Origin: Octopus vulgaris
Taxonomy: Eukaryota
Reading direction: 5' to 3'
Length of the DNA stretch: 64,000 bases
Assembly: GCA_951406725.2 (NCBI GenBank)
Contig: OX597815.1
Location: 66,154,001 to 66,218,000 of the forward strand
The notes beneath the pieces are model-generated. The model was given only the letters and a program-made list of their open reading frames with translations. It was not told where the DNA came from and ran no database searches. The translations under genes and the position numbers were made by a program. The first letter of the stretch is position 1. Every line of letters begins with the position of its first letter. Shown here in pieces: positions 19,171-48,199 of the stretch.

Positions 19171-19211
<41 letters not shown>

Positions 19212-19222: not shown

Positions 19223-19546
19223 ATGCATGTATGGGAACAGGATGTTGCCAACAGTAAACAACATGAAATATGAAAACAAATTAGTTCAATACGCAAACAA
19301 TGAGAAACAAATGGGTAACAGGACAAGTAACACAAAGAACGCCTCTTAATTCGTTGTTGGCTGTCTATCTACTCCCCATTTCGAGCGCTGAGGAGTAGAT
19401 AAACAGCCAACAACTGACGAAGGGTCGTTCTTTGTGTTACTTGTCCTGTTTTCTTTTTGTTTCTCATGTTGTTTGCATATTGAACTCATTTGTTTTCGTA
19501 TTTCATGTTATTTACTGTTGGTGATGTCTTGTACCCATATATGCAT
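19223..19546. repeat. Fold-back inverted repeat (arms about 150 bp)
   Basis: 19223-19375 pairs with 19392-19546 around a loop of about 16 nt. Related single-arm sequences occur at about 18980-19170 and 62820-62995. Confidence 0.88.
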
Positions 19547-19647
19547 TTGTGCATATATATGTTATTTATATTATTATTTGATTGAATGCCACACCAGGTA
19601 GTGCCCTTGTGTATATATGTACATATCTAATATTGTAAATTAAATAA

Positions 19648-20696
19648 TAAGAGTAGAAATTGATATAAATCAATTAAAATCAGTGGCTTAGCATATTTTT
19701 AAAAATCCAAAGATTAAAAATTGTGTTACATACAAAATTAAGAGGAATGACCACTAAAGTGGACACTTAATATGCTAAACATAGATGTCAAATTGCCATT
19801 GCCACAAAGAATGTGTTCTCAAGAAAAGTCTCAGCAAAACGCCAAAATGCAAAATGAGCAAGACAAATGAAAATATGTGAAATAAAAAACAATTACCTAC
19901 GTACCAATGGTTTCACTTGTTAATATTTACATATGCAAACATGCATATATCTGCAAGATCGTCAGCATAGTCTGTCACTTACAAAATACAATTTCCAAAA
20001 CTAGATACAGAACGCTCAACCGAAATTGAGCATGTATAAGGTTCTACAAATTATATTTGGGTGTATTTTTCAAATGTCTTCACTTTGGTGCACTGAGGCC
20101 GGAAATTACTCTGCATTTGATAAATTTCAGCAGCCAATTCACCGGTTAGAGAACATTTTTTTATTTAAAATTAAATAAGAAGGGTAGAAATTGATATTAA
20201 TCAATTAAAACCAGTGGCTTAGCATATTTAAAAAATCCAAAGATTAAAAGTTGTGTTACATACAAAATTAAAAGGAATGACCACTAAAGTGGACACCTAA
20301 TATGCTAAACATAGACGTCAAATCCAGCCTCCACATGCCAAAGTGAAGACATTTGAAAAATACACCCAAATATAATTTGTAGAACTTTATACATACTCGA
20401 TTTCGATTGAATGTTCTGTATCTAGTTCTGAAAATTGTGTTTTGTAAGTGACAGACTACACTGACAATCTTGCAGATATCTGCATGTTTGCATATGTAGA
20501 TATTAACAAGTGAAACCATTGGTACATAGGTAATTGTTTTTTATTTCGTATATTTTCATTTGTCTTGCTCAGTTTTACATTTTGGCGTTTTGCTGAGATT
20601 TTTCTTAAGAACACATTCTTCAAGGTAATGACAATTTGACATCTATGTTTATCATATTAGGTGTCCACTTTAGTGGTCATTCCTCATAATTTTGTA
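19648..20696. repeat. Composite direct plus inverted repeat (pseudo-LTR-like)
   Basis: 19731-20103 is inverted at 20323-20696, and 19648-19793 is directly repeated at about 20168-20323. Confidence 0.9.
19897..19970 (-). ncRNA. Hammerhead ribozyme-like motif
   Basis: Minus strand: ctatg CTGACGA tcttg...caagt GAAA cc att gg TA cgtag. A mutated mirror copy (CTGACAA) lies on the plus strand at 20456-20529. Confidence 0.55.
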
Positions 20697-21188
20697 TCTA
20701 ATGTTGTATGTATATATTTAATTAATTTGACACTCATGATAGTATTTTAAAATACCACCCCTATATTTATTTATAAATTATTTCACACATTTCGTTTGTT
20801 CCTATAGTGATTGGTCACTTCATACGAACTTTTGCAGGCATGGTGGAAGAAAATTTTAGTAGTAATTATCTGGCAGACTTTGCCTGATGAGAAATCAGGC
20901 GCTAAATTTTAAAACCGGTACCAGGTTGAGCAGCATTACTTGTTCTAACCTAGCAGAGGTAAGACATCATTGTTCACTGAATTTTTTTCCTATCATGTCT
21001 GTAATAGATTTGTGACAATTCAGTCGTACAGAAGTATTTTTGACTTCTATTTTTTAGCGATGTAGGTGCTCATACAATGCCCTTGTGTATACATGTACAT
21101 ATCTAATATTGTATATATATATTTTATTAATTTGCCTGTACGGTTGATAATTCACTTGCCACTCATAACGGTATTTTAACAATACCAT

Positions 21189-21224
<36 letters not shown>

Positions 21225-21225
21225 T

Positions 21226-21434
21226 TAGGGTTGGTCAAAAGTCACCCGACAGGAGTCCAAAATTCCATAAATACTATCTGTAATTCTGTACTGGCTCAAG
21301 AAGGACTTCAGTTTGAATAATTCTCATGAAATTTTATATTTAGATGCTTTTATTAAATTCATTCAGTTGTTAAACATAAATAAATCTTGGAATTAAATGG
21401 TTTTGATTTACTGTCAGGTGACTTTTGGCCAACC

Positions 21435-21437
<3 letters not shown>
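21226..21437. mobile_element. Tc1/mariner-type MITE
   Basis: About 27-bp TIRs (c)AGGGTTGGTCAAAAGTCACCCGACAG / CTGTCAGGTGACTTTTGGCCAACCCTG, embedded in (TA)n. Confidence 0.8.
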
Positions 21438-21473
<36 letters not shown>

Positions 21474-22289
21474 TACATAGATATATAAGCTCATCATCAT
21501 TTCCTAACCCAGTCTTAACACACTGCACATCTCTTTTAGAATTATTCAACTCATGTTAGCACAGAAAAGTGGACATTAAAAAGCTGAAGAAAACAGAATA
21601 CATTGCATCAAAAATGCAATCACCACAAGAATAAAAAGTCGTTTGTACTATAATGAAAAAAAGATGCTTATTAATTATTTAGAGTATGTAACCTTTACTA
21701 CAAGAAAGCAATTATTAAAATCTACACTGTCTAGAAAATTGTTATAAATTCCCATTTTAATATATTTTGATCAAAATATGGTTTATAAGATTTCTTTTAT
21801 TATTAAAGATTTTAACTTCATAATCTAATCATTATCTTAATGTAATCAAGATAATTTTTATTCACTATGACATAATTATCTTACAGCTCATTTAGCTCCA
21901 CTTCTGTAACTCCGTCTCCTCAACTTTCTGCAAAATGGATATTTTTTGATGAAATTTTCCACAAATACATTTCAGATGGTGTAGTAACAAAATTGGGGTA
22001 AATATTTCATGCATCTCAACTTTCTTTCCTCATATGTTCTGAGGATTTAGATTGCAATTATCTTTTATCTTTTACTTGTTTCAGTCATTAGACAGTGGTC
22101 ATGCTGGGGCATTGCCTTGAAGAATTGTTAGTTGAATGTATCAACCTTGGTACTTATTTTTTAAAAGCCTGCTACTTATTCTTTCACTTTCTTTTGCTGA
22201 ATCACTAAGTTACAGGGATATAAACACACAAGCACTGGTTGTCAAGCAGTGATGGAAAAACAAACACAGACACAAAGACATACACATAT

Positions 22290-22326
<37 letters not shown>

Positions 22327-22500
22327 CATATATACATATAAATATATATACATATATAAATATATATATATATACATATATATATATTCATATATATACA
22401 TATATGTACGTACGTATGTATGTATGTATGTATGTATGTATGTATGTATGTATGTATGTATGTATGTATGTATGTATGTATGTATGTATTGTATGTATGC
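22290..22500. repeat. (TA)n-(TATG)n microsatellite between two oppositely oriented SINE tails
   Basis: Directly visible. SINE 3' halves at about 22068-22285 (minus) and 22505-22718 (plus). Confidence 0.9.
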
Positions 22501-22734
22501 ATGTGTATATGTTTGTGTGTCTGTGTTTGTCCCCCAAACATTGCCTGGCAACCGATGCTGGTGTGCTTACATACCTATAACTTAGCAGTTCAGAAAAAGA
22601 GACCAACAGAATAAATATTAGGCTTACAAAGAATGAGTCCTGGGGTTGATTTGCTCAACTAAAGACAGTACTCCAGCATGGCTGCAGTCAAATGACTGAA
22701 ATAAGTGAAAGAATAAAATATATACATACATAAA

Positions 22735-23082
22735 TAAATAAGTGGAGTTAAACGCAAGTGCTCTTCAAATTTTTTTACTTCCAACATATGTTTCAAAGAA
22801 AACACTGATATAATTCCAGAAGGAATAAAATGGTGTAAAACAATGCAATCTTCTCATCAAGGAAAAAAAGAAACCAAACATATCAATAAGACATTTTAAC
22901 AGAATGTGATGATTCTGTTAAAATGTCTTATTGATGGGTTTGGTTTCTTTCTTTCCCTGATGAGAAGATTGCATTGTTTTACACCATTTTATTCCTTCTG
23001 GAATGATACCAATGTTTTCTTTGAAACATATGTCGGAAGTAAAAAGATTTAAATAACTCCTGTGTTTAACTCCATTTATTTA
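22735..23082. repeat. Long fold-back inverted repeat (arms about 170 bp, 6-nt loop)
   Basis: 22735-22905 is the near reverse complement of 22912-23082, with loop gtgatg. Confidence 0.92.
22951..23039 (+). ncRNA. Type I hammerhead ribozyme motif (Penelope-like)
   Basis: Stem I tttcc/ggaag, core CTGATGA (22957-22963), stem II gaaga/tcttt with a long loop, GAAA (23023-23026), palindromic stem III acatatgt, and a GTC cleavage triplet (C at 23034). Confidence 0.7.
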
Positions 23083-24513
23083 TCTATCTATATCATCCAA
23101 AAACATTTCACTTAAACCTGGAGTTTCTACCTTTATAAATAGGCTGTTACATCTTTGGTACTTGTGTGGATTTTTGCTTCCCTGGTAACTATTTATTCAT
23201 TTTTCTGTGTCATTTGTAAACACTGAAAAAAAACACACATACATTTATAATTAGATATATATATATTCTTTCTGTTTCTGTCTAACAAATCCACTAATAA
23301 GGATTTAGTCAGCCCAAGGCTATAGTAGAAGACACTTGCCCAAGGTGCCGCACAGAGGGACTGAATCCCGAACCATATGGTTGTGAAGCAAGCTTCTTAA
23401 CCACACAGCCACACCTGCATCTGTTGAAAAAAGAATAAACTTTTAAGGACTATTTCACCCTTTGCTAAAAATTCTCTGAAAGAAATCTTTGTAGAAAAAT
23501 GAGTACAATTGAATACATATTTCTTTCATTATTTTATCAGTTTTAATCTCTCACTTTTAAATAAACTCAAAAGTACCCCACCCTGCACATGGTCATTTAG
23601 TATGCTAGAAATAGCAGGAATTACATTGGTCTCAAAAGCAATTCTTTTTCAACAAAACTGTAATCTACATCACTAAAATGTATGAGGAAACAAAGTCAAA
23701 ATGCATGTAATATCCAACCTGTCTCAATTTTTTTACATTAAATTCTGATATAATTGTAATTTACACCTTCTGAAAAGAAATTGTAGAAAATTTCCATAAA
23801 AAATACCTATTTTTCTGAAACTTATGAGGAAAGAGAGTTGGTGGAGGGAGCGGGGTCACGCATCTGTAGGTAATTACTGAGCAAGTGAGTACTATTAAAC
23901 AAATTAAGATAGAAAGGAAAATTAGATGTGACATGTGAGAGAAATTACACAAAATGAGAATCAAAAGTGTAAATATTTAGAAACTAGTAGAAAACTTTCC
24001 AGAGAGCAGTATTTCTGCTAGTTTGAAGAATAACTAAAGTCCATTTCCAATATATTGTATAATGTGTAGAAATTGTACACATGATAATCCTAAAGACCTG
24101 TTACTTATTGGAATACAATTCTGGAAATTCCTAGAAAAGTTTTGATGAAACACAACACTACTGACTTTGTAATATTTATTGACAGAAAAGTCAAGTCACT
24201 GAAATGTCAGAATCATGGAATAAACAGCAGAACTTGTACTACTTAAAAAAATATTACAAAAACATACCCATGAGAGTGCTAAAGTCTCAGGTGCATGTAT
24301 CAAAAGATACAAGTTGGCAAATTGAAAATGTCACTCAGTGTATAATTTGGTTACTATAAATGAACAAACAAATGAAATAAATAAATAAATTTAAGTATAT
24401 GTATGTAAGTGTAAAGGTGTGTGTATATATACATATATGTGTGTGTATGTGTGTGTACGTATGTATATGCATGTATGTACATATGATAAATGCATACAAA
24501 TATATATACATAC

Positions 24514-24552
<39 letters not shown>

Positions 24553-26680
24553 GCCCTCAGCCTTTGGGCTGAAATGTTATGAAAAAATAAAAAAATACAC
24601 ACACACATATATATATATGAAACATCTTGCAAAAGTTATAGTGTAATTGATATATAAATTTTACATTGGAATAGAAGAGATTTATGCTAAATTACAAATT
24701 ATGGTAATTATAATTTTTACCTGCAAAAATCTCCAAAAATCCACTAAGACCCTACAGAATATTTTTATTCTTATTTTATGTGTGAAGAGGGGCAGTCCCT
24801 TTATCCCTTAAAGGCTCTCCTTAACAGCTAATGTCGATGCTGTTGGTGCTCATTTTGAACTCCCATCTAAAAGTTAACCTGACAAAGAAAAGGTGTAATG
24901 AGACGGAGTTTAAGAGAGTTTATAGTTCTAAAGCCTAGCAAGGGGTTAGAGTTAGAATCAGTAAAACTTGGCAAGGGGTGGTGCATATCTTTCTTGTTCA
25001 TAAGAACAAGAAATATAATAATATTTGTAAGAAAATTTCATGACCCAAACGTCAGTTATTTTAATAACTTCTTATTTTCAAAATTAATTCAAATAAAGGC
25101 AACATATTTAAAAAAAAGGGTTAAGGTTGTTTGCAAAGTCAAACAGGTGCACTCATTGAATTAATATCAGAGAAAAAATTTCAACCCTGGGTATATGGTA
25201 TTTAAGTGAAAGCATGTGGCCTAGTGGTTAAGATGTTGCAGACATGAAAACAAGATTATAGTTTCAATTTCCTGACTGGGCAGTGAGCTGTGTTCTTAAG
25301 CAAAACACTTAATTTTACATTGCTCCAGTCCACTAAGCAGTAAATGAGTAATTCTGCATGGGCTAGTATCCCATTCAGGGGGTGCATTGTGATCTTTGTC
25401 ATGGAAACCAAGTAACTAGCCCTATGATTTCTAGGACTCAAGACAGTACTCTCCAAGGGATGATGATAATAATGATGATGATGATATTTGACTTATGACC
25501 TGTGGAAAACAGAGTAACAGACAGACAGCTTTATTTGTAAAATATAAGAAAGGAAAAGGAAAAAAACATTGGAAAGTAGAAATAGACTTACGTGATAGGT
25601 AAATTAGGGAGCTTAACCTTAGCAACAAGAGGATTGAAGACAGGAATGGATACATCATAAGTCTCTCGGTAAGTCCATGTAGAAAATCCACCTCCTGCAA
25701 TGATAGCCTTGTCTGTCTTGACACTAAGAATAGTACTATATTCCATCATGCCTCCAGGGAGCATGTTGAATAAGAGATGATTGGTCCCATTGTTCCAACT
25801 GAAAAAAATAAAATGATAGAATCTTTAATACATAGTTTTTCAGATTATCGTTATTACTATAGTGTTAGCAATACATTATCATCATTGTAGTCATCATTCT
25901 CATTTAACATCCACGTTCCATACTAGCACAGGTTGGATAGTTTGTTGGAATCCAAGTTTTTGGACTGCATTATGTTCTACGGTCTGGTTGGGTATGGTTT
26001 CTATGGTTCAATGCCCTTCTTAATGCCAAGCACTTGGCAGCATGTACTAGGTGCTTTCTCCATGGAACTAGTGAGATTACTAAGCAGCTTGCAAGACCAA
26101 GATTCCCTTTGATATTTAACTCTTTTGTTCTTTTTCTCTTGTTTCTCTTTTTAGTATTTTCGTCAAGAGGAAAGGCAGCGCCCATGGCCTGTTAGAGAGC
26201 CTTTGAGATTGATGTGAGGAAGGGTGAGAAGAAAGTATTCTCAAATGCTTGTCATAGTGTGGACCTTGCAAAAGGTACCCAAGATGCCAAACACAACTGG
26301 ACAACTGATTAATTCTATCAACCAAGTAGGCCATGGCAGGATTTGAACTCAAGATATAGAAAGCTGAGATAAATGTCACAAGGCATCCAGTCCAACATTT
26401 TTATCATTCTGCCAATCCACTGACTTTCACCCTTTAGAATTTAAACCAACCATGTCCAGCCCAAATGTTCTACCTGCTTTATATTCAAACCAGCCATTTG
26501 CAACCTCTCACACCTACTCTGCAATGTTACTTTCAGAAAAAACAATCACACTATTGAAGTTGTGAGAGCTATGAGATAATGCATGATTAATTCAAAAGAA
26601 TGTTGATCATTACATTTGACAGAGCAGTCTGAATGCTAAAGGGTTAAATCCTAATCACTTCATTTCAATTAATTAACATG

Positions 26681-26925
26681 AGGCGCGTAGCTTAGTGGTT
26701 AGAGTGTCAGCATCATGATCATAAGATTGTGGTTTCGATTCCTGGACCAGGCGACGCGTTGTGTTCTCGAGCAAAACACTTCATTTCACATTGCTCCAGC
26801 CCACTCAGCTGGCAAAAGTGAGGAACGCTGCGATGGACTGGTGTCCCGTCCAGCTGGGGAACACATACGCCATTGAAACGGGAAACTGGGCCCATGAGTG
26901 TGGTTAGGCTTTAAAAGGGCGCATT
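26681..26925 (+). mobile_element. tRNA-derived SINE with Meta-like central domain
   Basis: A box (TAGCTTAGTGG) and B box (GTTTCGATTCC), followed by GTGTTCTCGAGCAAAACACTTCATTTCAC and CTGCGATGGACTGGTGTCCCGTCCAG. CpGs are retained. An older copy lies at about 25210-25440. Confidence 0.75.
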
Positions 26926-27811
26926 TAATTTTTATTTTTAATGTTCACTATACCTTGTTATCAAATAGAATGAAGTAGCAGACATTTACTGTTGATTAGT
27001 GGTTATCAGTTTTTTTGTGCTTAGTACTGCTTAGTGGACTGTCAGAATGATAAGAATATTGGACTGGATGCTTATCTGACCTCAGCAGAATTTGAACTCA
27101 GAGTGCATCCATTCAACATTCATAGCACACTGACTAACTGACCAGTAGTTCAGATAATACCAGTGCCTCTTTCATTACATTTTTTCCAAGAATTGAAACA
27201 CACAGGAAGTTGAAACCAAGTTTTTACTCTCTTTTTATTTAACAATATAATTAAGTAGACCTAAAAATTATATTTAATTTTTATTTTATTCCATCATAAC
27301 CAACAGGAGCTGCCTCATGGTTGCCTGACATGCAATAAATAGCAGCCAAATTCCATTTTTACAAATTGCACCCTATTGTCTTAGAAAAAGGACATTTTAG
27401 AATATGGTTCTGGTACACACAAGAAAAAGATATGATGAAACTGTCAAAGTAGACAGTGGAGTATGATGCAATCCTTATATAATGAAATCATATTGACCAT
27501 TAGCAGATCATAAGTCATATTTTCTGCTCACTAATAGCAAAATATTCTATTCTTATCTCAACTAAGATGTTTTTTTTTTAAAAATGTGTTGCAAATATAT
27601 AAGTTTTTTCATGGTTTAAATATTTTACTTCTACAAAAAAAATTATGACTCCCACTAAATATGCTAAGTCTCCTATAAAGTCTCTTTATGTGCTCCAAAC
27701 ACCACCAAGAGAGCACTTTTGCCCAGGTTAAAAACCACCACTATAGGATGTACTTTGAGTTAGGAACAGGGCCATAATCTTCACCTATTTAACACACACA
27801 CAAACATACAT

Positions 27812-27846
<35 letters not shown>

Positions 27847-28640
27847 CATATATATATATATCAGAGGCAACTCCAGGTCATCACCATCAGTCGAGCTCAT
27901 CATATATTTCGCATAAGGCATATGCCTGCTTGAAGAATTTTCCACTTTATTTCTAGCCCCAAATGGATTATTTTTGTATATCTAGCACTATGTCTTTCTC
28001 CATTTCTAAGTTAAGCATGAAAATAAACCAACCTTGCAAAACACAACTGATCTTTGCACACAGACACACAGAATAGCAGCAATCAAATAACAGTGGAGTG
28101 CACAACAAACGGGAGTGTTCTCACTGTCAGCTGTACTCTTGACAAGAGATGCCAGTTAGTTTTTTACACCTACTAGGCACATTTGTTTTAGCCCGAGTTG
28201 CTGGATAAATTTTCGTTCCTTTGAGAATATTGTAGAATGGAAACTTTTCATAGATTGGAATTTAAATACTAATCCCCTCAGAAATTTATTGTTTCATGAA
28301 AACATTGAATTTGAATTACTTTTAATTTTTACGATTATAGATAACAACTCAGACTGTAACTTCTGAGCTTTAGTCAGGTGCATGTGAATGATGTCAAGAA
28401 ACTGTCTACTACTCTCTCTTTTACTTGTTTCAGTCATTTGACTGCGGCCATGCTGGAGCACCGGCTTTGTAGTCAAGCAAATCGACCCCAGAGCTTATTC
28501 TTTGTAAGCCTAGTACTTATTCTATCGGTCTCTTTTGCCGAACTGCCAAGTTACAGGGATGTAAACACACCAGCATCAGTTGTCAAGCGATGCTGGAGGG
28601 GACAAACAGACACACAAACATATACACACACATACATACC

Positions 28641-28680
<40 letters not shown>

Positions 28681-29367
28681 AACACACATATACGACAGGT
28701 TTCTCTCCATCTACTAAATCCACTCACAAGGCTTTGGTCGGCCCAAGGCAATAGTAGAAAACACTTGCCCAAGGTGCCAGGGCACTTCTAAGATACCACC
28801 AGATGCTGAACGAAAATAAATGAACTGAAACCAGGCTCAATAAAAGGAGCCCAAGTTATTGGCTGAAATTACATACTTGAAGTCAGTGTTAGTAGAAATT
28901 AAATCAGCTTATACCCAAACACCACTGATATATATATATCATTGGGGTGTCAAACCTGAAGTTTACTCTATTAAGTTCATGCACTGAAGCAGGCTATCAG
29001 TGAAATGGTAATCCAGAGATTGTTTGTTATATCAGACATGTTTGAAAATCTGCAAATATTCACAGATTTCTACAAGTATAACCAAGGAGAATAGAGTGAA
29101 CAAGTCTTTTTATTTCATAAATAATAAATAAAAGGACTTGCTCACTCCATTTTCCTTGTTATACATACATACGTATATTCGCCATGATAGATTACTAGCC
29201 ACTAAACCTTTTTCTTTTTATTTTTCCTCTCCCTGTTTATTTCTGTGTTCCTTTCTGTCGAAGAGCATAGGCTCGAAATGTAAAAGACTTTCTCACCTCC
29301 TGAGCATTAAACTAATACATCTGCTTGTTTAAACACCCGTCTTTGTCTTTTTTTTTTTGAAAATTCT

Positions 29368-29416
<49 letters not shown>

Positions 29417-33627: not shown

Positions 33628-33663
<36 letters not shown>

Positions 33664-34215
33664 CAGGCTTCTTTCAGTTTCTGCTTACTCATAAGGATTT
33701 GGTTGACCTGAAGCTATAATAGAAGACACTCACCCAAGTGGGACCTAACTTAAGATCACATGCTTGGGAAGAAAGATTCTCAACCAGCCAGCCACTCTTG
33801 TGTCTATTTGTGTGTATATAAACAGACAGACATGCACATATATATATATATATATATATATATCATCATCATCATCATCATCATCATCATCGTTTAACGT
33901 CCGCTTTCCATGCTAGCATGGGTTGGACGGTTCAACTGGGGTCTGGCAAGCCCGAAGGCTGCACCAGGCCAGTCAGATCTGGCAGTGTTTCTACAGCTGG
34001 ATGCCCTTCCTAACGCCAACCACTCCGAGAGTGTAGTGGGTGATTTTATGTGCCAGCGATACAGGTGCCAGACGAGGCTGGCAGACGGGCACGCTCGGAT
34101 GGTGTTTGTTACGTGCCCTCAGCACAGAGGCCAGTCGATGCGGTACTGGCTACGGTCACATTCGGATGGTTTTCTTATGTGCCACCGGCACTGGTACCAC
34201 AAGGATACAAATTCC

Positions 34216-34246
<31 letters not shown>

Positions 34247-34277
34247 ATATGATAGGCCACCTATGAATGGTTTAAAT

Positions 34278-34442
34278 CAGTAGTTCTTATCCTTGGTTCA
34301 TATAGCCCTTGTGGGTACATATAATATTTAATTATGAAAATACAGTAGGATTTTTTTATATACAGTGGATGGCCACAGAGGTCCAGTAAAGTAAAACAGG
34401 AATCAAAGTGGTCCATATGCAAAAAATGGTTGAGAACCACTG
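34278..34442. mobile_element. hAT (Charlie-like) MITE
   Basis: Ends CAGTAGTTCTTATCC / GGTTGAGAACCACTG. The 8-bp TSD GTTTAAAT is intact on the left and split on the right by a TTAA element. Confidence 0.75.
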
Positions 34443-34448
34443 GTTTAA

Positions 34449-34669
34449 CCCTTTAGTGATCACATTATTCTGCCAAAATTAATGCTTTTTTATTCACATT
34501 GTTTTGAACTAATCATGCATTATCTTGTAGCTTTGAGATTTTGATGAGGTAGCTGTTAATTTTTAAAACGATATTGTAGGGTTGGTGTGAGAGACCAGAT
34601 CTGGCCAGTTTGAACATAAAACAGGCAGAATACTTTTGGCCGGATATGGCCGGTTTAAATGCTAAAGGG
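34449..34669. mobile_element. TTAA-flanked piggyBac-like MITE
   Basis: TTAA-CCCTTTAG...CTAAAGGG-TTAA. Related decayed copies lie at about 2497-2695 and 26428-26648. Confidence 0.75.
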
Positions 34670-36011
34670 TTAAATAATCAATTGTAGCAGTTTACAGCCA
34701 CAAGCACTTCTATTTTGTGTGGTAAAAGCAATCTTGAGTTTGCCATAGAATATTCAAGCCCCATGACATTATAGCCATTTGTTACTGAACTCTGTGCAAA
34801 ATTCAGCAGCTCGAGCAATGCACCAGCATTGATTTTTGCTTTAAACCGAATAGTTTTATAACTGTGAATAGAGCTTTATTTGATTTTTATTTATTGATTT
34901 CATCTAGAGGAAGAGCAGTTTCAATGGCCTTCATAGACTCACCAAAACCAAGGAGATCAACATGGTTAATATTTTTACTGAATAGTTAACAGCTGCAGGA
35001 AAAATATATTCTTAGGGGGAATTCCAGAAAGATGATGTAGAGGAGAAAATAGACTGGATGTAAATGGATAGTGTAGGGAGTGGAAGGATGGACACAATAT
35101 TGGTGATGAGAAGACAAATGAATTAGGAGTGTCATAACGGAGATGGTTGAAGTTGACCAAAGCCTTGGGTGGATCTGGTAGACAGAAACTGAAGGGAGCT
35201 CATCATATATATGTATGTGTGTGTGTGTGCTGGTCTTGATATTACATAACGGTTCGCAATGAGCTTTACCATCATACAAACAATGTTGCTTGTTATCAGT
35301 CCTCCATAAAAAAACATGTCTAACCAAGGGTAATAAATATTACCTTGCAGTAGGTGAAAGTTGTATCAGGAAGGGCACCTGGTAGTAGAAAAGCTGCCAC
35401 AACAAATTCTGTCTGACCCATAGAATCAAAGAAAAAGTGGACATCAAAATAGTGATGATGATAATATTTTCCTTGAATGCAACAAATGTAAAAACTTTCA
35501 TTAAATCTCTTTCTAAAGGATTATACAGAAACTAGTTAATATGAAATGAAGCATGACATTGGATATCTTACACAAATGTATTGGCCATGTTAGCTTCAAC
35601 TCACTTCAATTCATTTCACTGTTTTCTCTCTCTTTCGTTTTGTGTTCTTGCTTAGTGTAAAAACCAATTTCTCCAAACCCAATAATATAAGTATTTTTGC
35701 TGTTCATGTAATGTTAAGCTTAGCCTAGCAACCATACTCTCTCTCTCTCTCTCTCTCACCCTCTTTGTATATGTCATTTTTCATCATATGTTTGTCTTCC
35801 TTTTATTTTAATTTTAATATTAATCCATAGAACCTTAATTCTTTATAATAATGACATAAAGAATAAAGGGTGGGGAAGGTAAGTGAGGGTCAATAAAGAA
35901 GGGAAAATAAATAAAGCTATATTTTGTACTGCTAAGCTCTTTCATTGCCTTTTTCTTTTCCTTTCTTCCTGTTGTATGTTTCCCTTTTAGGTTATTCCTA
36001 CTGCCATCTAT

Positions 36012-36065
<54 letters not shown>

Positions 36066-36413
36066 ATATATATATATATATACACCTACCTACCTAATTA
36101 TCTATCAACCTATATCTAAAGAGTCAGCAACCTATTTATCCATCTTGCTGTTTATATCTAGCTATCTAACTACATACCACATTACATATCTATATGTATC
36201 TATTTACTCGTAACTAAGAAGCTAACTCGGCATCAATCTCCTCACAGTTTATATCTATTTTTCTATCTATCTACATCTCTTTCTAACTACATCTCTATCT
36301 ATCTCTTTGTTTCTCTTCTATTCAATAAATGTCTTCTGTTCAATTACAGGCTCTTATAACATTAAGCTAGAGTGTGATTTGTTTTCCTTGTATTGATCTA
36401 TATCAGAACTTAC

Positions 36414-36434
36414 TTCAGACCACCACAACTCACC
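36414..36434 (-). other. Candidate 21-nt microexon in EXT2 intron
   Basis: Minus strand: U-rich tract ...tgtctgcctttcAG|GGTGAGTTGTGGTGGTCTGAA|GTAAGT. Length is 21 nt and it is open in the phase-2 frame of EXT2. Confidence 0.45.
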
Positions 36435-37302
36435 CTGAAAGGCAGACACAACAACATTACAATAAAAGAACAGGTTAAATAAAAAGATTAAACTGCCACG
36501 TTGAACTCCTTTAAATATGTCACCTTCCACCTAGGTATCAGTTAAAACAGCTGGGAATTGTTATGTTGTACACACATAAATATGCATACACATGAGTGCA
36601 CACACACATGCACACAAACAAAAACCAAAAGAAATAACATCAAATAAGGCAGTTTCTAGTTCAGTGAACAAGGCAGAACTTTAAAAGTACCTGATACTTT
36701 AAACATTCAATTGATACACTTCTAGAAACTTCTGTTCTTCAGCTCCTTACTGTTGCTAAATAATCAATATATAACCACAACTATCACTACACACACACAT
36801 ACACCACTAAAGACACATCTATGAAAGAGAATTATTTACTGTCATTTAATATATATTTTATTTCTTTACACCTTTTCCTTATATTTCCTTTCAATTGTTG
36901 TTAGTTACAATAGCTTTCACCATCTTTTATTTTTATTTTTCATATCTATTACATTTATTTTTATTTTCTTCATTTCCTAAATATATATATATATATTTAC
37001 AAATTGGAAGCAAATGTTCTGGTTTAGAAGTGTTCCAGAATTAGCAAATACTAGTAATAAGTTTGGAGCACATAGTTCTGTCTAGACTGGTAGGGTTAGC
37101 AAGCCTTTTATATCATTCACCTATTGATAGAATCAGTGAAACCTTATTGTAATTCCATCCAGCAGCATGTAAATTTCTAAAATAAAATTAAAAAGTATCA
37201 TTAATAAAAAAATTTCTTGATTTAAAAACAATAATTCCTTTTTTCCACCATGGTATTATGACATTTTAATAAGAAATATTTAAGGTGATTAATGAAAAAT
37301 GG

Positions 37303-37710
37303 GTGCAGGTGTGGGGAAAGAAGGTTACTTCCCAGCCACATAATTCTGGGTTCTGTTCCATTATGCGGCACTTTGGGCAAGCATCTTCAACTATAGCCTA
37401 GTGCCAACCAAAGCCTTGTGAATTGATTTGGAAGACAGAAAACTGAAAGAAACCCATTGTATGTGTGCGTGCGTGTGTGTGTGTGTGTGTGTGTTCACTT
37501 TGTGCTTGTGCGCCCCATTATCACTTGACAACTGGTGTTGGTTTGTTTACATCCCCATAACTTAGCAGTTTAGCAAAAGATGACTGATCGAATAAGCACC
37601 AGGCTTTAACAAATTAGTACTGGGATTAATTTGTTCAACTAAACCCTTGAAGATGGTGCCTCAGCCTGGCCACAATTCCGAGACTGAAACAAATAAAAGA
37701 TAAAAAGATA
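37303..37710 (+). mobile_element. tRNA-derived CORE-like SINE with internal (GT)n and CR1-like tail (representative copy)
   Basis: Head GCAGGTGTGG...GGTTC, then GGCACTTTGGGCAAG...CTATAGCC...CCAAAGCCTTGTGA and tail ...ACTGAAACAAATAAAAGA. Other copies lie at about 425-730, 28412-28780, 30060-30455 and 55605-55960 (all minus). Confidence 0.8.
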
Positions 37711-39692
37711 ATGAAATTCATAAAGAACAATAAAAATTCAATCTAATAATATTGATATAGTTGGAATATTTAATATGTGTTTGGTGAGCACTACTTATCT
37801 CATTGATATTTGGCTGGAAATTAGTGAGTTTTGGCCTTTTATTACCTACTCTCTTCAAGATTCACTTCACTAATAATTCAGCATCCTTAATGCTCAAAAT
37901 TGCTTCAGGCATTTATTGACCGATTGAAGTCAATACTAACTATCTGCAAGCCCTAAGTCTAAACCTTCATAGTCTTTTTGTTACATAACTGGTCAACCCT
38001 TTGATGGCAACAAACTCAAAATCAACCCTGGTTCTACAACATAAATCTCATGTTTTTAAAATTATCTAAATTAGAACATTCCATTAAAATTTCATGTTAA
38101 TTTATATCCCAAACATTAGCTTAATAATGAGAAAGTTATTTTAATAAATGTTTCATTATTTTCACAATGAATTGAAAGAAAGGTAGTGTATTTTAACAGA
38201 AACAATGTGACACAAGGATTAAATGAATAAGCCAACAGGCTAAAAAAGAAGTAATGACCAAGGTAGAAAACTGTCAAACTGATCAGGCTTCTTTTGGTTA
38301 CAGTCTTCCAAATCCATCCAGAAAGCTTTGGTCATCCCAGGCTTACAGTAGAAGACACTTACTTGCCCAAGGTGCAATGCAGTGAGATTGAATTTGAAAC
38401 CACATGGTCAGGAAACCAATTTCTTAACCATGCATTTATACTTGAACTAAATCTCTTTTCAATTATCTAGTTATGGATTTTTGATTGAGACTTACAGGTA
38501 GACAAAGGTACAAGTAGGTCAAATGTCTAAAATCATTGATCTTAAAGCTGTTAAAACCAGCTGTTGAATATTCTTTAGTCAATGATGTAACAGTATATTA
38601 TCCTTACAGCAAGTCGATATCATAATGCTTCAGTTATTACATGTTGTTACAAACATGGGAAACATTTTAAGTTAAGCAAATACTTACTCAATATTATATT
38701 GAACAACTGGTTTCATGATCATCATTTAACATTTGTGTTCCATACTGATATGGGTTGGACAGTTTGACAGGATCTAACAGATCCAAGAATTGAATCATGC
38801 CCCCGTATCTACTCTGGCATAGTTTCTAAGGCTGGATGCCCTTCCTAATACCAAACACATAACAACAAGTACTGAGTCGATTTACTTGACTAAACGTTCG
38901 AGGTGGTGTCCCAGCATCGTCACAGTCTAATGACTGAAACAAGTAAAAGATAAAAGATAAATAGCTAAAATATCAGCATCACTTAATAAACTTCTTTTTA
39001 ACATTCTGAGTTCAAATTCTGCTATGGTCCTTCTTTTAAGGTTGATAAAATAAAGTACACCTAAAGTCCTGAAGTCAATGTAACTGACCTACCCGTCCTC
39101 TCAAAAATGCAAATCTTGTATCAAAATTATTATTATTAATGCATCATTATCATTATTGAAGATGAAAGAAAAAATGTTTAAACAAAATGATTGGTACAGG
39201 ATAATGAATAAAATCAGGAATCATAATGGATAGATAGAAGGAAGAAGAGACAGACAGCAAAAGAAGAACAATACAGAAAAAGAAGCTAAGCAAGCCAATT
39301 AGACATACAGAGAGCAGTGTGGATAAAGACAGAAAAGAAAGGAGGGAGAATAACAAAAGAGAATGAGAAACAGTAAAGAAAGAGGGAGGGAGGTGAGTAA
39401 TAGTTGCTGCTGCTGATGAATTATCTACATTCAAGGAATTTCATCAATGGTGTATATGTGGGGGAGGATGATGTCAATCAGGGATATAGCATTCAGATTA
39501 AGTATTCGTGTAGGTGTTGTTCTTGTTTAGCTCAAAGTAGGCCATGCAGAAGAGCTTTAATCAAAGGCATTCCAGTCATGGCCATCTAGTCTTTTATGTT
39601 CCAAACAGACACTACACTGGACTACATTGTACTTCTTTTATAAAGCAGTAAGGTATAATTTGAGAAAGATTTCGCAGTAAATTTTTTTTATT

Positions 39693-41783
39693 ACACTCAT
39701 TTACAACTATCATGTGATTGTTAAAATAAGTTAAAATAAGGCATGCACACACACACATGATGGGCTCTTTTTAGTTTCCATCTACCAAAACAACTCACAA
39801 GGCTTTTGTCAGCCTGGGGCTATAGAAGACACCTGCCCTAAGTGCCATACAGGTGAACCTAAAAGCATGTGATTGGGAAGCAAGTTTCTTAACTACACAA
39901 CCATACCTGCATCTGTTCCAAACAATTCAATAGACCTTACCATAAAAAAAAAAAACAATGAAAGAAAAGTATTATAATTACTTCATTTCATCTAGATAAG
40001 ACTTTGAAGGTTTTTTGGAAAGATAATGAACCTTGGAATTGTTTCTAAATGTAACATACAACATTAGTAATCTCTGATTGGTAGTCTTTCAGACTAGCTA
40101 CCACTGCCTCATGGAGAAAAAAGAGCGAGGAATTGGGTGATTGTTTCTTCCAAGAAATTTTGTTCTAAAAAATTTATTTATTTTACATTTTTGCCTTCAA
40201 ATTCTGTTCCCTTTTCCAATATATTTTAACTATTATACCCTTGATTTTACTGCTATTTCTCGCACATCAAACGACCACTTTGAGGCTGCTTCATTAACTC
40301 ACGATGTGTGTGTTGTGTATGGATGTGCATGTAATACTTAATCAATCAAAAATGTTAATTGGTGATGGCAGTATGAAGAACTGAAATACACAGCAATTAA
40401 ACAAGACGTACTCCCTCAATCTCTTCACCCCACCCTCAATAACAGAATGGACTCCCTGGATTGACTGTTTAAATATAATTTTAGTAGAAACACTTTATTT
40501 CTGTTAGACGGACTCATCACTTGTCACAGGATAAAAGGAAAATGAGACAGCAATTTAAAGAAATTACCAAAAATAAAAACTTGGGAAACACATACACACA
40601 ATTCTGTGTCTGCCTAAAATGGCTGGTTTGGCAAAAAGATACAAACCACAACACAGGTGCAGGCATGGCTGCATTGTTAGGAAGTTTGCTTTCTGGCTAC
40701 ATGGTTTTAAGTTCTGACCAACTGCATAATACTTTGGACAAGTGACTTCTACTATAGCCATATCTCAACCACAGCCTCATGAGTGGATTTGGTAGATAGA
40801 AACTGAAAGTAGTCTGTTGTATATATGTGTGTGTGTGTGTGTCTGAATATTTATATTAGTGTCTCTATGTCTTGACATCACATGATAATTGTAAATGAGC
40901 ATCACTGTCAAACAAGCAGTGTTATTTATTTCTAGTATTCCTTGCCATGGAGAAATAATATCACCTTGCTTAGAAACAGGTAAGAACAGACAACAAGAAG
41001 GGCCTCTAATCATGGAAAATCTGCCTTAATAAAACCTCATCAGCCCCATGCAAGCATGCAAAAGTAGACATTATAATGATGATGTTGATCATCACAAGTA
41101 TAACATACACACATATTAGTTTCAAACTTTGGCACAAGGCCAGCAGTTTTGGGGGATAGGCTAAACCAATTAAATCAACCCCAATGATCAACTGGTACTT
41201 ATTTTATCAATCCCAAAAGAATGAAAAACAAAGTCAACCTCAGCAAAATTGGAACTCAATGTAACGTCACAAATGAAATGTCACTAAGCATCTTACCTGA
41301 CATGCTAATAATTCTACCAGCTTGCCATCTTAGCACACACACACAAATTGAAAGCAAGATGATAAAAAAAATTTTATGGGGATATTTTATCAAAAACATT
41401 GATATTTCCTTACTAATGCTAGAAACAATTCCAAGGTTCATTATCTTTCCAAAATCCTTCAAAGTCTTATCTAGATGAAATGAGGTAATTATAATACTTT
41501 TCTTTCATTGTTTTTTTTTTTTATGGTAAGGTCTATTGGATTGTTTGGAACAGATGCAGGTATGGCTGTGTAGTTAAGAAACTTGCTTCCCAATCACATG
41601 CTTTTAGGTTCACCTGTATGGCACTTAGGGCAAGTGTCTTCTATAGCCCCAGGCTGACAAAGACCTTGTGAGTTGTTTTGGTAGATGGAAACTAAAAGGA
41701 GCCCATCATGTGTGTGTGTGTGTGTGTGCGCACGTGCACGCACACCTTATTTTAAAAATCACATGATAATTGTAAATGAGTGT
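39693..41783. repeat. Inverted duplication, arms 39693-40047 and 41420-41783
   Basis: Arms are highly similar reverse complements and include both a SINE head and about 135 bp of its non-SINE flank. Confidence 0.92.
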
Positions 41784-43546
41784 CACTGTCTTACAAGCAA
41801 AGCCATTCATTTCTAATCTTCCATGAAAACATGTTTGGTTATGGGGAAATACTACTCGCTTACAAACAAGTGAGGTTTGGAGACTTGAAAGGCTTCTGCC
41901 CAAAGAAAATCTGTTTCAATGAATTCCATCTGACCCTTGTAAGCATGGAAAAGTAGACATTAAAATGGCAATGATGATGATGATTCATTGGAATGTTCTG
42001 GTGTCTATTTCTCCTTTCTTCATCATCATTATTTTATTCACTTTCCATGCTGGGATAGATAAGACAAAATACCACAGTCAGAATCAGCACATCTTCTGAA
42101 GTGGTGCTTATGTAGATGGGTCATAGTAACTGCATCCCAGTTAGTTTCTACAGCTGGAAGCCCTTCCTAACAGCAGCCATTTTACAGATAAGTATACAGG
42201 GTGTGTTTTTCATGGCAGCAGTATTAGAGAGATAGCCATGTCTTTGACAAAACAAAAGAGTCTACAGTGTGTTCAGAGCTAGCCCTATCAGATAGCAAGC
42301 ATAGAAGGACTTCCTCGATATAACCAAAGGGATTTCACATACCTGCTCATGAAATTTACACCTCTGCTTATGAATGTTTGTCCTCTATGCTGGCATGGGT
42401 TGGACGATTTAACAAGAGCTGGCAAGCCAGAGGGCTATGCCAAATGCTATTGTCTGTTTTAGCATGATTTCTACGGCTGGATGCACTTCCTAATGACAAC
42501 TATTTTACAAAGTGTACTGAGTACTTTTTTTGTTACAATAGCACTGGTAGGGTCACCAAGTAACTTGCAAGACAAGACAACATCCCCTTGATTGGTGGCA
42601 GGGAGTATCAAGGGAGGTAGCTTTGTACCAGCTGATGTGAGGTTAAAAGAATGATAGAAGGACAGAGATAGGTGTCTTGCTGTAGAAGAAATAAAAGGAT
42701 ATCCCAGTTGGAGAAGAAGGGAGGACACAGAGAGGAAGATAGAGATAAGGAAGGTGGGAGAGATGGTGGTGAATATGACTCAGAACACAGCTTCAAGGTG
42801 TAGTGGGGAAAAATAATAGGTGAAGTGATACAGAGGATTGTACTGAGGGGGTGGGGACAGAGAGGAATATTTCATAAGAATATGAGAGGAGATGGTTAGA
42901 TGGGATAGAGGAGGCTGTAGTAACTGAAGGTGAGATATATAGGAATGGCTCAGGGGGAGGGCTTAGGTTACATACATGATGGCACTGAGAATGATAGAGG
43001 ATAAAGGAAGTGTTAGGGATAGAGTTAAGCACAGAGGAAGGAGCTTGACTGGAAGAAGATGAGGAATGGAAACTGTTTTGGGGAGGGGAGGAGAGGGGAA
43101 GGTAAAGAAAGGAGAAGTGTGTAGTTTGTACCCATTTTGCTTTCAGGTGATTATGGTAGTTGAATAATATCAGATCGGAGGAGCAGTGAGAATGGGAGTG
43201 GGGCAGAGCTTTGCACATACAAGCATTTACTAAGGTGGTTTTAGGAAATCAATTCTATTGTGGTGGGTAGGTTTTAGTTAGAAATATAGATTCCTCAGGT
43301 GATGAATGAAAGACTTAAACAGCACACTACCTAAGTGTTACATAATATTATGTTGTATCTTTTTACATTCCAAGTTTAAATCATACCAAGATTAATATTC
43401 TTTAATCCTTCTAGAGTTGATAAAATAAGTACCTGTCATTTCTCATAAATGGTGATGCCAATGTCCTATGTAAAATAAATTCATTTGTAAACATGAATAT
43501 TGACAACTTCATGAACTACATGTGATATACAAAGGCCAAATTAGAT

Positions 43547-45780
43547 CTTATATTGAAACACTCATACAAGAATAGAATCTATATTAATGATAAAATGTAA
43601 TACAAAACTCACTTACAAATAACACATCTTATTAATTAATTAATATGAAATACCATAACCAAACCATTTCCTGATTGCTGAGAGATACCAGATGTCAATA
43701 GTCACAAAAATTTTCCTTGAACCTTTTAATATCAACCTGTCTGAGACTGCTTTTTATCTTATGATAAAACTTCTTGTTCAAAGTGATCTAAATTAAAACT
43801 TTCCATCAAAATTTCATGTTAATTTATTTATGTATCAAACACCACTTTAATAATGGTTTCAAATCTTGGCACAAGGCTAGCAATTTCAGAGGAGGGATTA
43901 AGTTGATTACAATTACTCCAATGCTCAACTGGTACTTATTTTATTGACACTGAAAGGGTGAAAGGTAAAGTCAATTGTTACAAAGTTTGAATTCAGAATG
44001 TAAAGAAACAAAATGCTGCTAAGCATTTTGCTCAGCACAGTAACAATTTTGCCAGTTCACAACCTTATATCAGTTTAATAATGACACTTATTTTACTAAG
44101 TTCCTTCTTAATTTCAAAATTAATTGAAACAAAGGCAGCATATTTCAACACAAGAGTTAACCCTTCATGGGGTGTGTTGTTACCTGAAATTTTTTTAAAT
44201 ACTCATAATTTCTAGTTGGCAACTTATTTTTTTGCTCCCTTCCTCTACTCTTCTGACTCAGTCAGAGTGTGCTGCAGGTGGTGTGGTGCAGTTATGGCTC
44301 AATTGTCATGGGAGGTAGACATCATTTTTGTCTGGTCACCCCATGTGACTAACGCAGTTCAAGTTTTGATTTAATGCATATTGTAACAGAGATTGCTTGT
44401 TATGTTATTTTTTCATGTTAATATTCATGACAGAGATTAAAAAATTCCACAAAATGGTGTATTCTGTGCATATTTTCAAAATATGATCTGAATCTAAGAT
44501 TTTTTAGTTTTCCTTAATTTTATATTTTGTTTTTGGATTTGGTTTGCAAGATTCTTTATATGAGTTCGTGTGTTGAAGCATATTCTGTTGTGTCTGGGAA
44601 GAGTCATTTTCTTTTTGTGCCTTATAATGTAACACACTCATTGGTAAAATTTCCACTTTTTTTCTTATTTTTATTTTCCTAAAATTTTCGTTGCGTCTTG
44701 CAACCTTTTCAATAGTTTTGACTATAAGAAAAAAGTGGAAATTTTACTGGTGATTGAGTTAGATTATAAGGTACAAAAAGAAAATTACTCTCCACAGACA
44801 CAACTTAATTTTATAATTTATCTTATTGTATTGTTTTATATCAATCAGCTACAAGGGTTTAAAACTTCTCAGCAGTGATTGCAGATATACATTCTGAACC
44901 AAGAGAATGAGTATATTTTACATAATGCTAAAACTATAAACATTTTTGTATTGGGGTGTGTAAACACCCCATATAACTAACCATGTTCAGCAAGGTCAGG
45001 TGACTAATGAAGGGTTAATAATAATAACAAATGAGAAACAGAAGAACTATAATTCCTATGATTCTTGCTTCATTAAAATTTAGGAAAAAAAAACAGCAAT
45101 ACAAACCTACACTACAATAACTTGACAGGTTTTCCTAAAAGTAATCTGAGCATCAGATTATGTCTAGGAAAGGCATGAATGTCACAGTTGAAGATATTAA
45201 ATAAAAATTAAAACAGAAATGCAGCAGAACTGTGCCAGTGATCAGATCACAGCTGTGTGACAAAAAATGACATTACAGGTTCAGTGTGTGAGGCTGGATC
45301 TGGTCAATTTGAACATAAAACAGGTAGAATATTTCCGCCAGGTACAGCCAGTTACTTAAGGATTAAATTTTGTTCTAGTCTATTGAGAATGTCTGTTGTT
45401 TATGGTGATATCTAGTGGTTATTTAAGCTAGTGTTATAACTCTTATATTGAAACTCCCACACAAGCATAGCATTTATATTAATAATAAAATATAACACAA
45501 AACTCAATTATGAATCATAACACATCCAAATAATTAATTAGAACCAGACACCATGACTAAACTATTGCTGAGAAACATCAAATATCAATAGTTACAAGAA
45601 TTTTCCGTAAACCTTTTAATATTAACCTGTCTGAAACGGCCTTTGGACTTATTCTTTTACTTGTTTCATTTGTCTGCAGCCATACTGGAGCACAATAAAA
45701 TTTCCTGTTTAAAGTGACCTAAATTAAAACTTTGCATCAAAATTTTATGTTAATTTTTATGTATCAAACACCAGTTTAAG
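43547..45780 (+). repeat. Older dispersed direct duplication (43547-43850 vs 45443-45780)
   Basis: Colinear diverged match from CTTATATTGAAAC through TTGCTGAGA and AACCTTTTAATAT.AACCTGTCTGA to TATGTATCAAACACCA. Confidence 0.8.
44161..45014. mobile_element. TTAA-flanked non-autonomous DNA element with a nested hairpin repeat
   Basis: TTAA-CCCTTCAT...ATGAAGGG-TTAA (8-bp terminal match only). Internal inverted repeat 44586-44668 / 44724-44803. Confidence 0.5.
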
Positions 45781-47315: not shown

Positions 47316-47338
47316 GAAAAATAGAAAACAGTACTTAC

Positions 47339-48162: not shown

Positions 48163-48199
<37 letters not shown>

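Follow-up and report, generated by a model that had tools for sequence, protein, structure and literature searches.

Fold-back repeats with hammerhead-like motifs at the Octopus vulgaris EXT2 locus are probably decayed Penelope-like insertions

Four long inverted repeats (HP1-HP4) lie around the first coding exons of the exostosin gene EXT2 in a 64,000-nt stretch of Octopus vulgaris DNA (GenBank assembly GCA_951406725.2, contig OX597815.1, positions 66,154,001 to 66,218,000 of the forward strand). This stretch is referred to as the window, and all positions are counted within it. The four fold-backs are most likely decayed, 5'-truncated insertions of Penelope-like elements (PLEs) or of their non-autonomous derivatives, in which only a pseudo-long terminal repeat (pLTR) bearing a hammerhead ribozyme motif was copied, the inverted copy likely being made at integration. 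The fold-back is likely a by-product of integration and not the form in which the families exist. The four repeats are the following:

19223..19546, unstranded: HP1, a fold-back whose arms, joined head to head, belong to a very abundant family of repeats (family A), arm divergence 14.9%
19731-20088 and 20338-20696, unstranded: the arms of HP2, divergence 7.8%
22735..23082, unstranded: HP3, a near-perfect head-to-head fold-back, divergence 9.4%, with a 6-nt loop at 22906-22911
44587..44804, unstranded: HP4, a fold-back with a loop of about 55 nt, divergence 12.3%

The first-pass annotation had described four long inverted repeats unrelated to each other, and both statements hold: the arms are 85-92% identical in all four, and no two of HP1-HP4 match each other. 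In the microsatellite-masked window they are the only fold-backs with arms of at least 80 nt and a gap under 260 nt, except for one pair (22068-22286 and 22504-22712) that represents oppositely oriented copies of a dispersed repeat at 71% identity. The arms have drifted apart by 8-15%, mostly through transitions, which account for 57 of the 77 mismatches. The junction between the arms is a short palindrome in HP1 and a 5-bp micro-hairpin in HP4, and the arms of HP3 start 6 nt apart. The inverted arm of HP4 (44724-44804) copies only the sequence downstream of its hammerhead. Predicted minimum free energies of the whole hairpins range from -90 to -585 kcal/mol.

HP2 displays the most complete arrangement. 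Its fold-back, annotated earlier at 19731-20696, is real, but the insertion reaches further and also contains a direct repeat:

19638..20694, minus strand: HP2 insertion, made of 1.3 tandem copies of a non-coding unit of about 530 nt with its 3' end at 19638, plus the inverted copy at 20338-20696
19624..19637, unstranded: left copy of the target-site duplication, 14 bp, identical to 20695-20708 at 13/14 positions
20695..20708, unstranded: right copy of the target-site duplication, 14 bp
20779..21190 (approximate), plus strand: host repeat of HP2, forming a partial tandem with 19602-19637 joined to 20709-20778, ending at (TA)n and containing a decayed hammerhead at 20879-20925

Read along the minus strand, the insertion consists of the inverted copy, a short 5'-truncated copy and a full unit ending at 19638; the inverted copy lacks the last ~90 nt of the unit. 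A single 14-bp duplication frames all three segments, and the duplicated sequence occurs once, at 21100-21113, in the uninterrupted copy of the host repeat, which thereby provides the empty site. The direct repeat (19637-19793 against 20168-20323) is 5.8% divergent, close to the 7.8% between the inverted arms, and is therefore consistent with the origin of all segments in one event. HP2 is thus a clean nested example, placed inside another hammerhead family and carrying both a target duplication and an empty site. Altogether, 18980-21210 holds a nest of at least four PLE-type insertions adjoining or lying inside one another: a solo copy of family A, HP1, the host family and HP2.

The HP2 unit has neither a reading frame nor a protein match. 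We compared the region with contigs of four public runs from four organisms, aligned to 19215-21180 at 80% likeness (4,442-10,639 contigs per run); variant letters come from 40 of 217 rows, and summed contig depth is not taken as copy number. The head-to-tail junction near 20167 is bridged by 40-60 nt in diverged contigs (~84-86%) of runs X1, X2 and X7, so the unit is common to other loci. Summed depth exceeds 140,000 at the 3' end of the unit (20139-20270, run X1) against 5,900-63,000 further 5', the pattern that 5' truncation should produce. We regard the HP2 family as likely non-autonomous and retrozyme-like. The earlier description of the hairpins as non-coding families accordingly applies to HP2 only; the families of HP1, HP3 and HP4 may be pLTR ends of ordinary coding elements.

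Hammerhead-like fragments (CTGA...GAAA...TC) are also present on the plus strand of the HP2 spacer, at about 20089-20114. They were rejected as the core of HP2, leaving no room for G8-A9 and helix II and lying antisense to the unit. The fragments are flanked by a TGCA palindrome, and no frequent indel occurs there among the paralog rows listed.

The arrangement of HP2 closely follows that of endonuclease-bearing PLEs (Penelope/Poseidon and Neptune). The accessible text of PMC3846280 describes a pair of direct pLTRs together with an inverted one, a tail, target duplications of 8-10 bp, junction palindromes and non-coding captures between solo pLTRs, and that of PMC8557442 reports a matching pLTR layout, a bias towards (TA)n, and Octopus Naiad elements without canonical hammerheads. 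As far as these sources and PMC11167929 extend, the octopus insertions share with such elements the partial tandem, the adjacent inverted 5'-truncated copy, the tail at one end, a variable target duplication (clear in HP2), junction palindromes, AT-rich or (TA)n targets and a type I hammerhead near the 3' end. The combination of a partial tandem with an adjacent inverted 5'-truncated copy is complete in HP2; HP1, HP3 and HP4 show the head-to-head copy only. The optional one-end tail is visible in the ~90-nt deficit of the HP2 inverted arm and in the two 3' ends of the HP1 family, and is not seen in HP3. A target duplication at an AT-rich or (TA)n site is evident for HP2 (14 bp, with its empty site), while HP1 and HP3 have only short TA-type matches and none was found for HP4. 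Against the published descriptions available to us, the hairpins differ in having no open reading frame, which admits only truncated or non-autonomous members, in the length of the duplication (14 bp against 8-10 bp in the rotifer examples), and in one-sided extensions of ~65-90 nt where 30-40 nt are reported. The proposed connection to PLEs is supported by the layout of HP2 and by a GIY-YIG endonuclease end elsewhere in the window (see below), and the frequent insertion into (TA)n is borne out by the AT- and (TA)n-rich targets.

Family A shows that its members can be found without the fold-back. Three features in the window belong to it, beside HP1 itself:

19547..19592, plus strand: likely one-sided 3' tail of the HP1 family, on the right arm only
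18980..19172, minus strand: solo relative of family A, ending in a GAAA block and lying between (TA)n tracts
62818..62999, minus strand: second solo relative of family A, 79% identical to the copy at 18980

Two locus-like contigs with 2 differences have a depth of 42-51, against a summed depth of 520,670 at position 19418 in run X1; family A must therefore be very large. In each run, 33-83 contigs extend across the HP1 junction into sequence that is not inverted. Together with the two solo copies this means that the hairpin is not the standard form of family A, contrary to the earlier proposal that the families insert as hairpins. Contig joints to the opposite strand were not counted as inversions elsewhere, as those checked are explained by one contig aligned across both arms. 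Elsewhere, members of the HP1 and HP2 families terminate in (TA)n, as loose ends at 19546 and 20180 show. For the HP1 family two 3' ends are seen, one at which (TA)n starts at 19546 (40 contigs, X1) and another at a TA-rich end about 21 nt past 19592 (35-49 contigs, three runs).

The half motif of HP1 consists of a GAAA block at the junction and a CTGANGA at 19414 downstream of it. In four aligned relatives of family A, GAAA precedes CTGANGA by about 25 nt, the reverse of the type I order, and no helix I is found. The heptamer is kept at 19389-19440 and on the minus strand at 19135 and 62968. Position 19418 reads T in 97-98% of summed depth in all four runs, the highest summed depth among the variant rows listed. 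The loose ends of family A include a palindromic segment 20-30 nt upstream, and the actual first half of the ribozyme may be situated more to the 5' side. Permuted and dimeric hammerheads are described in the accessible parts of PMC10085705 and PMC6765202; a permuted arrangement (GSC or GCS, as far as PMC10085705 describes them) was considered by eye for family A and rejected, H17 being G and the four copies having no in-register partner for helix I in common. Metagenome scans with the family A pattern gave 0 matches. Similar scans with a 20-mer of HP3 gave 11, none of them similar beyond the 20-mer, and these are attributed to chance.

Complete type I motifs are present in HP2, HP3 and HP4, and several more occur as solo copies or remnants:

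19897..19970, minus strand: type I motif of the HP2 left arm; the core is intact, helix I has 5 bp, the helix II region spans 44 nt, helix III contains a near-palindromic insert of 7 nt, and the site is UA
20456..20529 (end approximate), plus strand: copy of this motif in the HP2 right arm, with G8 mutated to A at 20466
22952..23039, plus strand: type I motif of the HP3 right arm; the core is intact, helix I has 5 bp, the helix II region spans 59 nt, helix III contains a palindromic insert of 6 nt, and the site is UC
22778..22865, minus strand: copy of this motif in the HP3 left arm, with C3 changed to U
44679..44715, minus strand: minimal type I motif in the HP4 loop, with U3-A8 core, helix I of 3 bp, a G-C pair closing the 5-bp helix II, and palindromic helix III
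29251..29370, plus strand: solo family copy with a minimal hammerhead at 29251-29286 (A6 changed to U) and a T-rich 3' part, ending in (TA)n
48141..48304, minus strand: sister copy in the 29251 family whose 5' truncation falls in loop II, with GAAA and the CG palindrome kept; 81% identical over 164 columns including (TA)n
62353..62397, plus strand: minimal hammerhead remnant, A9 changed to C

The expectation of a core in each hairpin is thus correct for HP2, HP3 and HP4, and for HP1 only as the half motif. Three of the five additional cores proposed earlier are recovered (20879-20925, 29251-29286 and 62353-62397), and 54524-54688 is a possible one. There a core, a GAAA, a helix III insert close to palindromic and a 3-bp helix I occur, separated by ~135 nt with a poly-T tract, but neither a helix II closure nor a second copy is present; the site could be a third remnant with a long helix II. 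The candidate at 11833-11902 is not supported: no descriptor matches it, and the sister copy at 61048-61171 does not retain this GAAA. The term ribozyme/anti-ribozyme hairpin, also used earlier, fits HP2 and HP3 but not HP4, where the motif lies in the loop and the inverted arm is devoid of it, nor HP1, where no motif is complete.

The helix II regions of HP2 and HP3 contain inner hairpins, and the motif of the HP3 right arm is predicted to be cut after 23034. The motifs found by descriptors have a helix I of at least three pairs and a palindromic helix III. The G10.1-C11.1 pair is present in HP4 and in the 29251 and 62356 motifs, and in the 20879 remnant by paralog majority. Self-duplex energies of the motifs are -8.4 kcal/mol for HP3, -10.9 for HP2 and -0.2 for HP4. 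Apart from HP4, type I motifs in several unrelated repeat families precede a 3' end that is AT-rich or (TA)n by ~45-270 nt. Majority letters among paralogs repair two of the damaged cores. Position 20466 is G in 92-100% of summed depth in all four runs, which restores G8 of the HP2 right arm. Likewise, 20910 T>C and 20911 A>G account for 84-100% of summed depth in all four runs, restoring C11.1 and G12 and completing the GAAA of the 20879 remnant. With the majority letters this remnant has a core, a 5-bp helix II closed by G-C, GAAA, a palindromic CCGG and UA; the window copy carries a C.C mismatch at the first pair of helix I.

The frequency of these motifs depends on how much of the ribozyme is required. 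The bare CTGANGA heptamer occurs 26 times in the window against 24.7 ± 4.3 in 25 local dinucleotide shuffles, and its count was set aside as evidence of ribozymes. A type I descriptor with a short helix II finds no intact motif and one with a single mismatch (0.72 expected), and misses HP2 and HP3. A second descriptor, permitting helix II of up to 100 nt and hence post hoc, as it was widened after HP3 had been seen by eye, yields five matches with at most one core mismatch (1.68 expected), two of them with zero mismatches. These two, the HP3 right arm and the HP2 left arm, compare with 0.02 zero-mismatch motifs per shuffle, and none of 100 shuffles reaches two. A third descriptor, drawn from the consensus of PMC4209133 including the U3-A8 variant and also written after the sites had been seen, gives three matches (HP4 with no mismatch, 29251-29286 and 62356-62395 with one each) against none in 200 shuffles. 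The heptamer therefore equals chance, while complete type I motifs exceed it.

Coding evidence for a PLE in the window comes from a single remnant:

61500..61844, plus strand: C-terminal GIY-YIG endonuclease remnant from a Neptune-like PLE, its 5' truncation lying at (TA)n

A HMMER search with this frame finds 621 relatives at E <= 0.001, and 146 of the 150 relatives searched align best at 61509-61760; word-index protein searches with the fragment gave no match. Among 22 longer relatives chosen, the Pfam GIY-YIG domain is found in five (one above the cut-off) and RVT_1 in three. Of the 150 relatives listed, 17 have the endonuclease-start pattern and at least 60 residues upstream, and 15 of these have a Cys-rich linker, which the sections of PMC8557442 available to us cite as characteristic of Neptune and of one further clade. 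The hammerhead remnant at 62353-62397 follows the GIY-YIG stop codon by ~510 nt on the same strand, across microsatellites, and we infer that the two belong to one insertion. None of the hairpin families could be assigned to this element. Four short motifs of the hairpin families were absent from the searchable text of the PMC8557442 supplement, in which long cells may be cut.

Several observations weigh against the attribution of the fold-backs to hammerhead-bearing PLEs. No reverse transcriptase or endonuclease frame, nor any protein match, is joined to a hairpin. HP1 has no complete hammerhead and no helix I, and the descriptors return nothing in it. A target duplication was not found for HP4, and HP1 and HP3 have short TA-type matches only. 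At the place of G10.1-C11.1, both arms of HP2 have U.U and both arms of HP3 have G.U. Both successful descriptors postdate the inspection of the sequence. The Rfam hammerhead models, proposed earlier as a check, give no match at gathering thresholds and none in two local scans, and an E-value scan shows no hammerhead among the best 150 of 270 rows. Isolated motifs fold no better than shuffles in nine of ten segments (z from +0.3 to -1.8), HP4 reaching -2.6. Comparison of stems rests on two arms per family, and the family-level data cover only 19215-21180 and 40 of 217 variant rows.

Known PLE biochemistry suggests how such structures might arise. In purified form, a PLE protein cuts the two target strands, extends each of them and prefers AT-rich DNA; it uses two start sites whose spacing corresponds to the tail, and hammerhead cleavage is not needed for insertion in vitro (PMC11167929). 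By analogy, a PLE protein with reverse transcriptase and GIY-YIG activities would nick both strands of AT-rich DNA, and reverse transcription primed within the RNA, at either of two closely spaced sites, would leave a one-sided tail. Most products would be truncated at the 5' side and keep just the end that bears the hammerhead. Synthesis might then stop at the ribozyme or shortly upstream of it, and the new strand would fold back, or the second strand would be primed from the other nick, so that the arms meet head to head at a palindrome or micro-hairpin. Fold-back priming, which the available text of PMC3846280 proposes for junction palindromes, is favoured over two independent truncations for HP1, HP3 and HP4 because their arms begin within a few bases of each other or at a micro-hairpin. 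In HP1, HP4, both family A solos and the copy at 48141-48304, the 5' end lies within ~10 nt of the motif or inside it, and the inversion point or 5' end lies 40 nt upstream of the motif in HP3 and 118 nt in the inverted arm of HP2. This hints at stalling near the ribozyme, in copies that were chosen for holding parts of the motif. Hammerheads of the parent elements would act as dimers through the palindromic helix III, and the genomic copies are predicted to be inactive because they carry mutations, stand alone or pair with the antisense arm of the same hairpin.

Other origins of the fold-backs appear much less probable. The mobile unit might itself be a ribozyme/anti-ribozyme hairpin, transcribed and retroposed as a whole by dedicated non-coding families, as the presence of the motif on each arm of HP2 and of HP3 and the recurrence of the head-to-tail junction of the non-coding HP2 unit in paralogs at ~84-86% identity would allow. 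We consider this very unlikely, given the solo arms and non-inverted continuations of family A, and a point of inversion that differs each time (at the GAAA block, and 40 nt, a few nt and 118 nt upstream of the motif); the RNA of a full hairpin would, moreover, pair the ribozyme with its antisense arm. Palindromic miniature inverted-repeat transposable elements (MITEs) or fold-back DNA transposons with TA targets would account for the symmetry of HP1 and HP3 up to their ends and for their TA-rich sites, with the hammerhead-like motifs arising by chance, as the heptamer count and the silence of Rfam permit, and a short element with terminal inverted repeats and TA flanks does lie nearby at ~21226-21438. 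Yet complete motifs stand far above shuffles, paralog majority letters repair the core, and the 14-bp duplication, the tandem-plus-inverted layout of HP2 and the solo arms of family A do not describe a fixed two-ended unit; this origin is untenable for HP1 and HP2 and highly improbable overall.

We assign an equally low probability to the inverted duplication of single PLE remnants by template switching during later replication or repair, unrelated to integration. Junction micro-hairpins and microhomologies fit a repair-type snap-back as well, and HP4 is not framed by a target duplication. All three HP2 segments are, however, framed by one duplication and diverge to a similar degree, and it is repeats of this class that carry all four of the long fold-backs, while far commoner dispersed repeats in the window show none. 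Least credible of all is the retention of the hairpins by selection, as double-stranded RNA in EXT2 introns (e.g. as editing substrates) or as active intronic ribozymes: the position of all four inside the EXT2 transcription unit, their long predicted duplexes and the intact HP4 motif, exposed in a loop on the transcribed strand, are countered by arms that have diverged by 8-15% with mismatches that are not compensated pairs at those columns, and by several mutated cores. Insertion of PLEs with an inverted copy made at integration remains the explanation that we prefer.

The genomic setting is given by two exons:

47338..47838, minus strand: first coding exon of EXT2, 100% identical to Octopus vulgaris exostosin-2-like, residues 1-167
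25591..25800, minus strand: second coding exon of EXT2, residues 167-236, 100% identical

Together the two exons match residues 1-236 without a difference, so the window originates from O. vulgaris or from a species very near to it. The intron that separates them contains HP4. HP1-HP3 are downstream of the second exon, and since no later EXT2 exon was found within the window, they are most likely intronic too. According to the supplement of PMC13282606, as far as available, the O. vulgaris genome contains 190 PLE families, which make up 6.83% of it; the words 'hammerhead' and 'ribozyme' do not occur in the text and supplement searched.

Other repeats of the window include further inverted and tandem arrangements. 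A small imperfect fold-back at 29076-29164 (89 nt, 82%) lies ~90 nt upstream of the 29251 hammerhead and may be the inverted junction of that insertion. Around the HP3 region, old inverted matches at 21908-22059 and 23656-23839 (72-77%) possibly belong to a larger decayed element that hosts other insertions. A young inverted duplication (39693-40047 and 41420-41783; 92% overall, 97% over 287 nt) has a 1.4-kb spacer, includes part of a dispersed repeat and has no hammerhead match. The element at 21226-21438, flanked by TA and bearing ~30-bp terminal inverted repeats, is likely a MITE and has no hammerhead match either. At 45836-46245, a tandem duplication of ~203 bp with 99.5% identity represents a recent event or an assembly artefact. 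A LINE-like remnant on the minus strand at 13048-13368 has a zf-RVT match (E 2e-6), and plus-strand frames at ~56100-57215 resemble the end of a non-LTR element by eye, the one scanned being without a Pfam match.

The fold-backs represent known PLE anatomy in a new host and not a new kind of element. The layout, of which the first-pass annotation knew no description in cephalopods, has been published for other animals (PMC4209133, PMC3846280 and PMC8557442, each to the extent available). PMC4209133 (Cervera and de la Pena 2014), in the parts accessible, reports minimal PLE hammerheads including the U3-A8 variant, mostly as single motifs from truncated PLEs, and also dual minimal hammerheads 100-700 bp apart on opposite strands. 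Two molluscs are listed there, and the word 'Octopus' is absent from the searchable part of supplement file 2. The octopus motifs share with these minimal hammerheads the type I topology, the short helix I, the extra base after A9, G10.1-C11.1 (outside HP2 and HP3), the palindromic helix III, the predominance of single motifs from truncated elements, opposite-strand pairs 100-700 bp apart and, in HP4, the U3-A8 core, which also occurs in a Schistosoma row of the portion of figure S3 available. They differ in the 44- and 59-nt helix II of HP2 and HP3 with inner hairpins, against ~25 nt or less in the rows of that portion, and in the want of a Watson-Crick 10.1-11.1 pair in HP2 and HP3; no cephalopod row appears in that portion of the figure.

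Non-LTR retrozymes, as presented in passages of PMC7229834 and bioRxiv 10.64898/2026.07.22.740005, resemble HP2 in their non-coding unit of a few hundred nucleotides, single type I hammerhead, head-to-tail junction, common monomers and proposed origin from PLE pLTRs. With 1.3 tandem units, HP2 falls short of the two complete units expected of an active retrozyme, and it differs also by its inverted copy. The passages of the bioRxiv study at hand argue that animal retrozymes are non-autonomous PLE derivatives and report cleavage in one of nine elements tested. Cephalopods are not mentioned in the passages of the two papers, and the words 'octopus', 'cephalopod' and 'inverted' do not occur in the searched text of PMC7229834. 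Hammerheads have been counted in a cephalopod before, as 235 'hammerhead 1' Rfam matches in the giant squid genome (PMC6962438, relevant part); that count is automated and without a link to PLEs, and the motifs described here fall outside the Rfam models. We found neither hammerhead-bearing octopus PLE families nor PLE hammerheads with a long helix II in what was mainly the open literature; repeat databases and supplements may hold them. What is new is the octopus families and possibly, judging by sequence, the candidate hammerheads with a long helix II.

With the class, the ribozyme and the layout all known, the general understanding of retroelements is left unchanged. The position of the junction relative to the ribozyme offers a genome-scale test of how inverted copies are made, by fold-back or from both nicks, a step listed as not yet validated in PMC11167929. 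Of interest for further work are the long-helix-II motifs, candidate ribozymes on sequence grounds that occur with intact cores in two unrelated families. If they cleave and covary, descriptors of hammerheads need widening and the number of cephalopod ribozymes would rise. The octopus is an animal with heavy A-to-I editing. A bolder reading, which we hold to be rather unlikely, is that its genome holds abundant PLE-mobilised, non-autonomous retrozyme families whose type I hammerheads, with a helix II that is both long (44-59 nt) and branched and a palindromic insert of 6-7 nt in helix III, escape Rfam and minimal descriptors, and that stalling of the reverse transcriptase near the ribozyme triggers fold-back priming and thereby seeds intronic double-stranded RNA. 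If this were true, present counts of cephalopod ribozymes would be far too low.

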